Assembly (NCBI GenBank): GCA_017536505.1
Contig: JAFXHG010000012.1
Coordinates: 52,541-116,540, forward strand
Direction of reading: 5' to 3'
Source of the DNA: Bacilli bacterium
Lineage (GTDB): Bacteria; Bacillota_I; Bacilli_A; RF39; UBA660
Length of the DNA: 64,000 bases
Below, one piece after another: positions 51,001 through 54,000 of the stretch; position 1 is the first letter of the stretch, and each line of letters begins with the position of its first letter. Made by a program: the position numbers.

Positions 51001-54000
51001 AATAATATTCTTTACCTTTAAAAATAACTTTTTTTCCATAATTATATGATAATAAATTTAATGCATTAGCAATCGATTGTACTCTATTATTTTGAGATAT
51101 TATATAAGCAATTAAAGTTTCAAAAGGATCTTGATGTATCATTTTAAGTCCCCTACTAAATTTAAGCGCATTTTCTAATTTCTTATCACATTTTAATATA
51201 TTTTTCTCTATTAAATCATAATCCCTATTAAGATCAAAATAATCATATATTATTTCTTTTAAATCTTCTTCTTTACTAGATTCTACAATAATATAATCAT
51301 TATCTTCTTTTAAATTTATTACTCTATCTTTTATAACAATAGTATAACTATTATCATTTTCTACAATAAATCTAAATATCTGACCACAAGTAATAGTAGA
51401 TTTTAAATCAAAATTATTTTTAATTTTTATCATACAACCACCACTAAATATATTATAACAAAAAATAACAAAAAAGTATTGCAAAAATAAAATAAGTTTG
51501 CTATAATTAATAATGTCTTATGGCGATGTAGCTCAGTTGGCTAGAGCACATGGTTCATACCCATGGTGTCGAGAGTTCGAATCTCCCCGTCGCTACCAAT
51601 AGAATTCGACGAGTCCTTGTTTTACAAGGGCTTTTCTATTATATAACCAAAATTCCTTATAAAATAAGGGTTAAATTGTTAATATTTTTTCAAAATAATG
51701 AAGTTTGTATTTAAAAAAAACAAGACCAAAACAAGACCAAAATGGCAATCTAAGACCAAAATAAGACCAAAACAAGACCAAAAGTTTTGATAAAAATAGT
51801 TCTTATAAAATAATAAAAATTTGACCATTAACTTTTTCAAAAAAGAACAAGTTCAAATTGAATTTGTTCTTTTTGTTTCTATCTTCTAAAAAATAAAATC
51901 TAACAGTATACTTATAAAACCTATCAAAATCCACAATAAAATTATTTGTGATATTTCAATTTTTTTATCTTCATCCTTAATTATTTTCTTACTTATTTTT
52001 TTACCAAATGAATTTTTATTTTTTATTTGACCTATAAATATCAAAAATGCTAACATTGACAATATAGCAATACAAACATTAAATATATTATTTTCAAAAT
52101 TATTATTGAAAATCAACAAAAGAATACCACCTATAATATTACCTATTATAAAAACAAATAAAAAGTCAAATACTATACTTATAAACTTCCATAATTTCAT
52201 ACTAAATTCACCACCTATTTAAAACTAAAAATTTCCTTTTCATTTTTTATTACATATTTTTCTAAATAATCTATAAGTGCTGGCTCAAATTGATAATATG
52301 CATTATCTACTTTTTCATATTCATCATCAATTCCGTTTTGTAATGCTTTAATAAAATTATTTGCTATTTTATTATTACCAACTATTTTTAATGCTTCAAA
52401 TAAATCTTCAGAATAGAATTTACTATGTGGATATGTACTAAAATATGCACAATGTCCACCATTATTTATTTCACAATCATACCAAAAACATAATACCGCA
52501 TTTTTTTGAATCTCATTTAATGTACTTATATTACGAGAGCAAACATCTTCTATAAATTTATTCCATATATTAATTTTTTTATTATCCATTTGTTTTTGTT
52601 GAAACTTTTTAATTTTTTTATTAATTAATCTCTCTCTTACATTAGTTATAATAACGAATGAATACATTGGCAACAAAAAAAATGCTAAAACAGTAATTGT
52701 CCATGTTAATTCGTTTTCTTCAGTGATTTTAGGAAAAATATTTATTTTAGTAAAAAGAATACTAATAAGAATACATACTATAATACTTGTTGCAATGATT
52801 ATATATGGATGATTTATATTTCCTAATAAATTATTCGCTAATTGTTCTTGCGATTTTTCTAACTTCTTTTTTTTGTTTTTTAACTCTTTTAATTCTTTCA
52901 TAAACTTACTCCTTAACAATTTATTTATGTAGTTTTCTACTTTTATTATACTATAAAAACGAATTAAATTAAATATTTTTCAAAAAAACAAGACTAAAAA
53001 CAAGACCAAAATTATTTTCATACCCTACTTTACCCTTATAAATAAAGGGATTATAAAAACATGAGATAGACGTGTGCCGTCGCTACCAATTAATAATAAA
53101 AGTCTTTAAAGACTTTTTTATTTTTGTAAGTTTGTATATTTAAACAATTTATGATAGAATGTATTTCGTTGGCCAAATTTTATATTATATTTTACTTTTT
53201 GTTATAGAAAGAAGGAAAAACATGAAAAACGAATATTATAAATTAATTGGAATATTGAATTTATATGAATCTAATATGGATATTGTTCATCCAGTATTTT
53301 CTAATAATGGATTATTCTATTTTCAAAACATAAAAAACGATAAAATTGAAAGTTTTAAATTAATATCAAATATAAACTTAATAAAAAAGATTAAAATATT
53401 TGAAAAAGGTGTGAACAATAGTATTATAAATAAAAATTGTTGTATTGGAGATAGAGCATTCTATGCTTTCCAAACTGATGAAAGTGATGTATTTGTAAGT
53501 ACTTTACCTGGATATTTAAAATTTCTAAAAAATTTAAAGACTGAATTTTATTCTTTAAACCTAGAAATCAAACAATTTATAAAAGATAATGAACATAAAA
53601 AAATAAGAACTATTAATTAGTTCTTATTTTATTTTTAAAATATACTATAGTAGTTATTAATCCTATTAATGATATAAAACTAATTATAACTATATTTCCT
53701 ATACCATCAAAAGTATTTGGAACTTTTTCTTCTGGAATTGCTGGAGAACTACTAGTAGTTTCTCTATATCCTAATGTATAAATACTAAAGTGTGTAGTTT
53801 TAAATATAGCATATCCATCTTCAGTAATTTCTACTTTATATTGTTCTGGTTTTCCATTACTATCTACATAATATACAACTAAATCTTTTCCTTCAAAATC
53901 TTCTGGGATAGGAATTTTTACTTCAAATGTACCATCATCTAATTTATTTATATATTCTTCTATTGAATTGGAATATAATTTTAAATCAAATGTTATATTA

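Follow-up and report, generated by a model that had tools for sequence, protein, structure and literature searches.

Non-autonomous elements flanked by attachment (att) sites are already known and have mostly been described as decaying relics left by integrative and conjugative elements (ICEs) or integrative and mobilizable elements (IMEs). Recombinase-less cassettes are also represented by integron cassettes (attC sites, IntI), by the pdif modules of Acinetobacter (dif-like sites, XerCD), and by staphylococcal pseudo-SCC (staphylococcal cassette chromosome) elements (integration site sequences, ISS; Ccr). In phage lambda, the attP site comprises a core and arm-type sites, the latter being bound by the N-terminal domain of the integrase. 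The described systems closest to the locus studied here are the cis-mobilizable elements (CIMEs) of streptococcal ICE/IME systems (PMC5704250, PMC6323972) and the prophage remnants at tRNA genes of Oenococcus oeni, whose listed features include defective integrases, degenerate att sites and the loss of key phage genes (PMC8074189). For phage satellites, one account gives a size of 7-20 kb and an integrase, regulators and replication functions of their own (PMC13376191). Here, we analyze a 64-kb stretch of an uncultured Bacilli genome (contig JAFXHG010000012.1 of assembly GCA_017536505.1; "the window"), in which a 1490-bp element without an integrase gene lies behind a tRNA-Met gene. The element occupies window positions 51601-53090, and all coordinates below refer to the window unless a contig is named. 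It is probably a non-autonomous, phage-derived and phage-dependent integrative cassette with a complete attL and a complete attR belonging to a lambda-type tyrosine-integrase system.

Like CIMEs, the window element has no integration or transfer genes and retains attL and attR, and one member of its family (contig L037, described below) stands in tandem accretion with an autonomous element at a shared att site, for which we propose joint movement. The partner, however, is a temperate phage and not an ICE or IME, and we therefore regard the window element as a phage-side variant of the CIME rather than a strict member in the ICE sense. Further differences are that the elements described here are far smaller (1.05-3.1 kb), carry full sets of arm-type sites at exact spacing, form arrays of several different units, and use at least two tRNA targets. 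The O. oeni remnants are likewise phage-related islands at tRNA att sites, sometimes beside an intact prophage of the same integrase type, but they are larger, whereas the window element contains no phage gene at all and its att sites are intact. Phage satellites, such as phage-inducible chromosomal islands (PICIs), P4-like elements and PLEs (PICI-like elements), share integration at att sites, flanking direct repeats and dependence on phages; the window element has none of their integrase, regulatory, replication, or interference and packaging genes, and "satellite-like", as the original prediction called it, holds as a loose analogy only. Integron cassettes, pdif modules and pseudo-SCC elements resemble it in being small cargo units between recombination sites, with the recombinase encoded elsewhere, arrays at one locus and shuffled cargo; what differs is the presence here of complete phage attL and attR sites with arm-type repeats at a tRNA gene.

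Attachment-site arms of the element, its relatives and a temperate phage

The crossover region of the element is marked by a 14-nt core, CCGTCGCTACCAAT, which consists of the final 12 nt of the tRNA plus AT, that is, two nucleotides beyond the CCA, and not of tRNA nucleotides throughout, as had been proposed. It occurs exactly twice in the 64 kb, with 0.03 matches expected even when two mismatches are allowed; the predicted recurrence 1.49 kb downstream holds (1490 bp), with an end coordinate that was off by one. Inside the two core copies lie seven direct repeats in the same orientation, five in the left arm and two in the right, in agreement with the original prediction (Table 1). A single further exact copy of the repeat AAGACCAAAA exists in the 64 kb. 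Both cores and all seven repeats are intact, the first left repeat lying 135 nt from the start of the left core and the first right repeat 87 nt from the right core. We infer that the AAGACCAAAA repeats are putative arm-type integrase-binding sites.

The arms of the element have a counterpart in a phage. Scanning viral contigs for two adjacent repeats led to a 41.4-kb phage contig (L018/L034), and the same phage is found in its attP form in L036 and integrated behind tRNA-Met in L010 and L013. Its genes are those of a temperate phage and include ERF, SSB, tail, holin and endolysin genes, with no conjugation genes seen in the ~41 kb. The order at the phage attP is integrase gene, two AAGACCAAAA repeats, a palindrome, the core CTCTCCCCGTCGCTACCAAT, a terminator, a second palindrome (CCCTTATAAAATAAGGG) and seven repeats. 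The integrase, P0001, is a 379-aa tyrosine integrase matching PF00589 and PF14659, with a predicted N-terminal arm-binding region, and is at most ~32% identical to any cultured phage integrase among GenBank phages. An 80-aa helix-turn-helix protein whose gene lies upstream of it (L034 8431-8673) is a candidate directionality factor. As in lambda attP, a core is placed between two arms with direct repeats that are distinct from it, and the integrase has a separate N-terminal region. The differences from lambda lie in the numbers of sites (2 and 5-7) and their uniform orientation, in the overlap of two repeats with the coding end of the integrase, and in the putative nature of the arm sites here.

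Each arm of the window element corresponds by homology to one half of this attP, with 197 of 245 positions identical on the left and 123 of 155 on the right (~80%), which upholds the earlier view of a miniature integrated element at tRNA-Met flanked by att direct repeats. Homology of the right arm begins at the repeats, and the place of the phage integrase gene is taken in the window by the leader of the cargo operon. Neither tblastn nor phmmer detected a phage-type integrase in the element, as predicted, or elsewhere in the 64-kb window. The sole tyrosine recombinase of the window is a 296-aa XerC-type protein (62440-63330, minus strand; phmmer; TIGR02224, 338 bits), presumably a housekeeping enzyme; its gene adjoins one for thymidine kinase and lies ~9.4 kb from the element.

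The integrase reading frames run through both right-arm repeats, and the proteins end in ...KQDQKQDQ... (L034 10272-10293; L011 ~8564-8590; L021 1695-1716), the arm-type sites and the integrase C-terminus sharing the same bases. In L010, a single degenerate repeat pair, CAAGACTAAAAATATTTTGACCAAAA, lies at ~3495-3525, ~1.5 kb past the left-arm repeats of the phage and just beyond the first gene of the phage, which encodes a 397-aa protein with helix-turn-helix (HTH) and transmembrane (TM) segments; this gene might be a former captured cassette that has lost its core.

Relatives of the window species carry other cargo between the same arms. A single scan of a genome collection, with the core plus the first six element bases as query, returned two uncultured Bacilli/Bacillota metagenome-assembled genomes (MAGs; L022 and L023) with flanking genes ~87% identical to those of the window. 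In both sister species the tRNA-Met site is occupied by other elements. L022 has a 3.0-kb integrase-less element with different cargo and a right arm 92-94% identical to that of the window, and L023 has two elements in tandem (E1 and E2, of 1.3 and 1.4 kb), which are separated by a full core, the distal core having decayed. A metagenome scan with core+AGAATT added four contigs: a 1052-bp element behind a different tRNA-Met variant (L024), a 3.1-kb element made of two units fused at a relic repeat pair (L033), a left arm with six repeats (L028), and a 1454-bp contig with an exact 141-nt terminal overlap (L025). The overlap closes a single element of 1313 bp, joining its right arm through the core to its left arm, and this element and L023-E1 are 91% identical. 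The remaining six of the ten matches were unrelated, four being chance matches (L026, L030-L032) and two being native tRNA-Met genes of distant AT-rich bacteria (L027, L029), the only element-free tRNA-Met genes seen.

Look-ups with the phage integrase yielded three contexts: the attP form (L036), a prophage attR joined to the chromosome with a decayed left arm (L038, L039, L041), and a phage-plus-cassette tandem (L037). In the latter, a core follows the prophage integrase and right arm; next come a left arm of different sequence and 2046 bp in which no integrase is encoded, and beyond a second core the flank is chromosomal, with sigma factor and SpoIIGA genes matching the window from 57352 onward. 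L037 is thus a tandem of phage and cassette, the cassette being a family member and not the window's own copy.

The geometry of the arms is kept across this family. Counted from the core start, the first left repeat begins at 135 nt in the phage, the window, L022, L023-E1/E2, L025, L028, L033 and the L037 mini-element, and at 133 nt in L024; on the other side, the first right repeat precedes the core by 86-87 nt wherever arms could be measured, the phage included. Despite this fixed spacing, the intervening arm sequence is only ~75-90% conserved. The same arms at the same spacing bound at least eight different cargo sets, in elements of 1.05-3.1 kb with one to four genes; cargo modules are mosaic between elements, and one leader stands before different genes. 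Relatives carry different integrase-less elements within the same arms, and not all one and the same 1.5 kb; a 1.5 kb common to all of them would have told against the original prediction.

Arm codes, integrase modularity and a second tRNA target

The cargo of the window element recurs at another tRNA gene. In L050 and L052, a DMP19 gene (see below) and a 265-aa gene lie between arms of like layout at the 3' end of a tRNA-Leu gene, flanked by a 17-nt direct repeat of this tRNA. Over ~820 nt that take in the DMP19 gene with its leader and the right-arm repeats, nucleotide identity to the window is 87-88%. The spacing is also similar: the first repeat lies 124 nt from the CCA, as it does in the window, and the right repeat is 100 nt away from the CCA end, against 98 nt in the window. 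The repeat has the variant sequence AAGTCCAAAA, and in L052 a second element follows the DMP19 cassette in tandem. A viral scan for this variant gave mostly chance matches in GC-richer contigs, L092 alone being informative.

Comparison of integrases relates the repeats to one part of the protein and the core to another. A 420-aa tRNA-Glu integrase of the same family, from the sister MAG SIG213 (L021 503-1790) ends in two AAGACCAAAA repeats and a palindrome, abuts the 3' end of tRNA-Glu, and lies ~3.7 kb from the tRNA-Met cassette array of that genome. P0001 and this protein have the AAGACCAAAA repeats in common and are 60% identical in the first 60 residues, against 27% in the rest. Conversely, three phage integrases (L094/L095, L096 and L097) are 58-63% identical to P0001 beyond residue 60 and have the same tRNA-Met core and architecture, but their repeats differ (CAGTGCCAAAA, CAGTACCAAAA and CAGCATCAAAA; CAGTGCC, CAGTACC and CAGCATC) in the region that reaches from ~70 nt ahead of the integrase stop to 300 nt beyond it. 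Thus, the repeat sequence follows the N-terminus of the integrase and the core follows its catalytic part, a co-variation that would be expected if the repeats are arm-type sites. In all, at least four arm codes go with one and the same core, and one arm code occurs with at least three cores. Since further tRNA-Met phage integrases use different repeats, several arm codes appear to compete for one attB. In the window, the tRNA-Glu gene (47758-47834, minus strand) is present with its site unoccupied.

Cargo genes and surroundings of the tRNA-Met site

The element contains only two open reading frames (ORFs), both on the minus strand and with ribosome-binding sites (Table 1). The larger encodes a 228-aa protein, which NCBI lists as hypothetical under a Bacilli MAG. 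Its N-terminus is basic, and two hydrophobic or TM segments precede a C-terminal DMP19 domain (residues 133-225). This domain matches PF14300 from model position 2 to 111 of 112 (E 1e-11; 45.8 bits, cutoff 25). The profile match and the hydropathy of both products bear out the predicted cargo of a three-TM protein and a TM-anchored DMP19-like protein. DMP19 of Neisseria, of the PF14300 family, is a DNA mimic (PMC3384305, PMC5722371). The cargo protein resembles it in that its C-terminal 93 residues match the model end to end and its C-terminal part is acidic (residues 121-228, pI 4.9); it differs in being membrane-anchored by two TM helices, and the link to DMP19 comes from Pfam alone. An anti-restriction or immunity function, as originally envisaged, or one in exclusion, would be a guess prompted by this family membership. 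The DMP19 protein has no sequence match in PDB, no Foldseek match and no relative in the scan of viral contigs, and the PADLOC and PHROG libraries assigned nothing to any cargo protein. The Rfam scan of known RNA families matched the tRNA alone; a SAM-II match inside the DMP19 gene stayed below threshold (28.9 vs 44 bits) and was taken as chance.

Parts of the cargo are found elsewhere. The leader of the operon is 95% identical to a leader that precedes a different TM gene in the sister-species element (L022 2070-2111). Homologues of the 228-aa protein (80-87% identity) occur not only in the tRNA-Leu setting but also in small-gene arrays from which the repeats are absent (L042-L049). The element that bears these arrays further encodes HTH regulators, an AAA_25 protein and a Mob_Pre relaxase, and the neighbors in the arrays include DUF5071 and YcxB-like genes. 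Cargo proteins of the L022 and L023-E2 cassettes have 58-77% homologues in the same arrays, where homologues of three different cassette cargo proteins can stand side by side (e.g., L042 4288-7883, L048 2691-6073). The presence of these homologues on Mob_Pre elements points to a shared pool of genes for membrane-anchored small-domain proteins, in circulation among mobile elements of two kinds.

Cassettes of the relatives also hold a module resembling a type I toxin-antitoxin system (L023 2340-2615; L022 3300-3565; L024 860-1030), which is absent as a whole from the window element. A hydrophobic ORF of 27 aa (MFKKDLLIFSLIILIFLLVLLLFIVLV), behind a strong ribosome-binding site, converges in it with a promoter that is followed by a highly structured RNA (minimum free energy -36.9 kcal/mol, z -5.35); Rfam has no match to it. 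The beginning of the ORF region has apparently been deleted in L024.

Table 1. Features of the tRNA-Met site and its integrated element (window coordinates)
Feature	Position	Strand	Details
Promoter-like site of tRNA-Met (host)	51479..51507	+	TTGCAA, 17 nt, TATAAT; TG before the second hexamer; 10/12, top match of the region
tRNA-Met(CAT), integration target	51522-51598	+	ARAGORN; Rfam tRNA 60.8 bits
Left core copy, attL crossover region	51587-51600	+	CCGTCGCTACCAAT, 14 nt
Left-arm intrinsic terminator	51611..51643	+	hairpin 51611-51633 plus T-tract; z -3.36
Left-arm palindrome	51655-51670		CCTTATAAAATAAGGG, 16 nt; 55 nt inside core copy
Left-arm repeats, five, exact and direct	51722-51783	+	AAGACCAAAA; starts 51722, 51733, 51752, 51763, 51774
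Terminator-like hairpin, 3' end of cargo operon	51840..51874		16 pairs
Cargo gene 2	51886-52200	-	104 aa; three hydrophobic segments, weakly RDD-like
Cargo gene 1, DMP19/DUF4375	52215-52901	-	228 aa; ATG start chosen behind AAGGAG ribosome-binding site
Leader and ribosome-binding region of cargo operon	52888..52931	-	
Right-arm repeats, two, direct	52990-53011	+	AAGACTAAAA at 52990, AAGACCAAAA at 53002; spaced 12 nt
Right-arm palindrome, imperfect	53033-53049		CCCTTATAAATAAAGGG, 17 nt; 27 nt inside core copy
Right core copy, attR	53077-53090	+	CCGTCGCTACCAAT, 14 nt
Host terminator, outside the element	53091..53125	+	z -3.31
Expected empty attB junction			GAATCTCCCCGTCGCTACCAATTAATAATAAAAG; also given as GTTCGAATCTCCCCGTCGCTACCAATTAATAATAAAAGTC
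Expected circle junction			GACGTGTGCCGTCGCTACCAATAGAATTCGACG; circle or tandem junction also given as GAGATAGACGTGTGCCGTCGCTACCAATAGAATTCGACGAG

The tRNA-Met gene, of the elongator type by inspection, is kept intact by the attL junction, and its promoter-like site is the host's, outside the element. The terminator of the left arm is conserved in the phage attP as well as in every family member, and behind tRNA-Met it takes the place of the host's own, which would directly follow the tRNA in an empty site, as the right half of attB. GC content is ~20-30% around the site and 19-23% in the element, and composition is therefore uninformative.

The palindromes of the two arms are present where terminal hairpins had been predicted, and that of the right arm is conserved in position, all right arms having an imperfect palindrome there with varying sequence. 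As single-strand hairpins, however, they are not stable and do no better than shuffled sequence (z -0.4 left, -0.9 right), and the left palindrome, found in the phage and some elements, is replaced in others. It may be a candidate protein-binding site. Arms and repeats are directly oriented, inverted matches within the element being weak and AT-rich. The term "MITE-like" (miniature inverted-repeat transposable element) is accordingly also a loose analogy, as the element has no terminal inverted repeats and ends in a tRNA-derived core repeat.

Between the right core copy and a terminator at 56033-56056 lie ~3 kb (53091-56030; three genes, for 132, 489 and 254 aa, with DUF4190 in the third) that are missing in both sister species, whose common flank resumes at ~56091-56105. 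This region has no repeats or core remnant and its 132-aa gene has a homologue in the L037 chromosomal flank, and it therefore looks like variable host flank rather than element. Further downstream, a sporulation-type sigma factor gene adjoins a Peptidase_U4 (SpoIIGA-like) gene (57352-58849), a pair which suggests that the 22%-GC uncultured Bacilli host may be a spore former. Among the contigs with the element, the short-read contig L002 (Logan SRR12529276) ends at the 5' side, inside the tRNA, with TACCCGTGG in place of TACCCATGG; this tRNA-Met variant is also found in other species (L010, L033), and the contig end probably marks a point where the assembly graph connects species with the tRNA in common.

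A probable phage-dependent cassette and alternative readings of the locus

In the reading we consider probable, each att site would consist of the 14-nt core, a palindrome and, at a fixed distance, the AAGACCAAAA arm-type sites, of which the left arm has five and the right arm two. The N-terminal domain of the integrase would bind the AAGACCAAAA repeats, and the cassette would enter the 3' end of tRNA-Met by recombination of an attP-like junction with the tRNA core, regenerating the tRNA at attL. The left arm would bring a new terminator for the tRNA, and the cassette a self-contained two-gene operon. Because the cassette is without an integrase and without an excisionase or directionality factor, it would move only with a temperate phage of the same core and arm code (P0001 type). 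Two routes are likely for such movement, including any present-day recombination of the window copy. In trans, the phage integrase and directionality factor would excise the cassette as a circle and re-integrate it. In cis, the phage would integrate at one core copy, giving a tandem, and excision at the outer sites would carry the cassette along with the phage genome. The cognate autonomous phage with the same attP layout lends support to the original view of a decayed or trans-mobilised islet.

Several observations weigh against mobility of this kind. The integrase of the P0001 family is absent from the 64-kb window. Five contigs carry the window element; all are occupied and 100% identical, and no circular junction of the window's own element was found. 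Samples in which the element is present include SRR12529276, SRR12529304, SRR31077498, SRR32129085 and the XIEF21-1 runs. The empty tRNA-Met site by which the insertion was to be checked was not found in close relatives either, exact-protein look-ups with two flanking genes and the cargo gene returning only occupied or truncated contigs. The terminal overlap of L025, the only hint of excision, would arise from a circle and from a head-to-tail tandem alike. Lastly, cores or repeats are degraded in L023-E2, L038 and L033, and since these members are clearly decaying, fixation and erosion do occur.

Such decay is the starting point of the strongest alternative, which we nevertheless hold to be unlikely. 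It takes the element for an inert prophage remnant, in which a tRNA-Met prophage suffered an internal deletion between the left arm and the right-arm repeats and the cargo is a leftover or a later insertion, the whole now being fixed DNA. In O. oeni, what is left of prophages has been described at tRNA sites, both by itself and in tandem with an intact prophage (PMC8074189), and CIMEs are defined as decayed elements (PMC5704250); decayed relatives exist here as well (the distal core of L023-E2, the left arm of L038), and the window element is invariant in all contigs found. However, neither the phage nor any viral contig scanned holds a relative of the cargo, and the supposed deletion would have stopped exactly at the edge of the repeats without leaving an integrase fragment. 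Repeated independent deletions would also not be expected to yield at least eight cargo sets in the same arms at the same spacing, or the same cargo between equivalent arms at another tRNA.

An improbable reading is a variable chromosomal hotspot maintained by homologous recombination, in which the arms serve as flanking homology for swaps by transformation or transduction and site-specific recombination has no current part. The mosaic cargo modules, with a leader sequence before different genes in different elements, would fit such swaps, and repeats common to many elements would supply the homology. Homology, however, does not need an exact distance from repeat to core, and both the full core between tandem units (L023, L037, L052) and the junction of right arm, core and left arm in L025 are products of site-specific recombination and not of allelic replacement.

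Very improbable is that the repeats are iterons of a small integrated replicon, or that host XerC/D moves the element as it does integrative mobile elements exploiting Xer (IMEX), for although the direct 10-11-nt repeats resemble plasmid iterons and a XerC-type gene lies ~9.4 kb away, the element has no rep gene and no DNA match in 72,556 GenBank plasmids, its junctions have no dif-like site, the core being a tRNA 3' end, and the phage repeats flank the core on both sides, lie directly behind the integrase gene and change with the integrase, which the cognate phages encode themselves.

A phage-dependent cassette with complete attL and attR thus remains the reading we prefer for the window element. 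Going beyond the single element, and more tentatively, the tRNA-Met locus (and that of tRNA-Leu) of this Bacilli lineage could be a cassette platform driven by phage integrases, in which cassettes of one to four genes, each between a full attL and attR with an integrase-specific arm code, are stacked, excised as circles, and taken up or left behind by temperate phages in an integron-like manner, by legitimate site-specific recombination at alternative core copies. On this possible but less likely extension, "moron" genes would be exchanged among phages, chromosomes and other mobile elements, and phage lineages with different arm codes would compete for the core.

The main interest of the locus lies in the comparative data, which point to a cassette family with a readable arm code and a direct phage association. 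What is found here is a whole family of minimal cassettes with complete phage-type att sites, exact geometry, interchangeable cargo, arrays, and a cognate prophage alongside. For annotation, this means that a search for islands should look at att architecture in addition to integrase genes. If the cassettes are mobilised, temperate phages could gain and deposit small accessory genes without illegitimate recombination, and the cassettes would explain variation in gene content downstream of tRNA genes in genomes with no integrase nearby. The family would then also represent a natural experiment on how arm-type site codes set the specificity of integrases.

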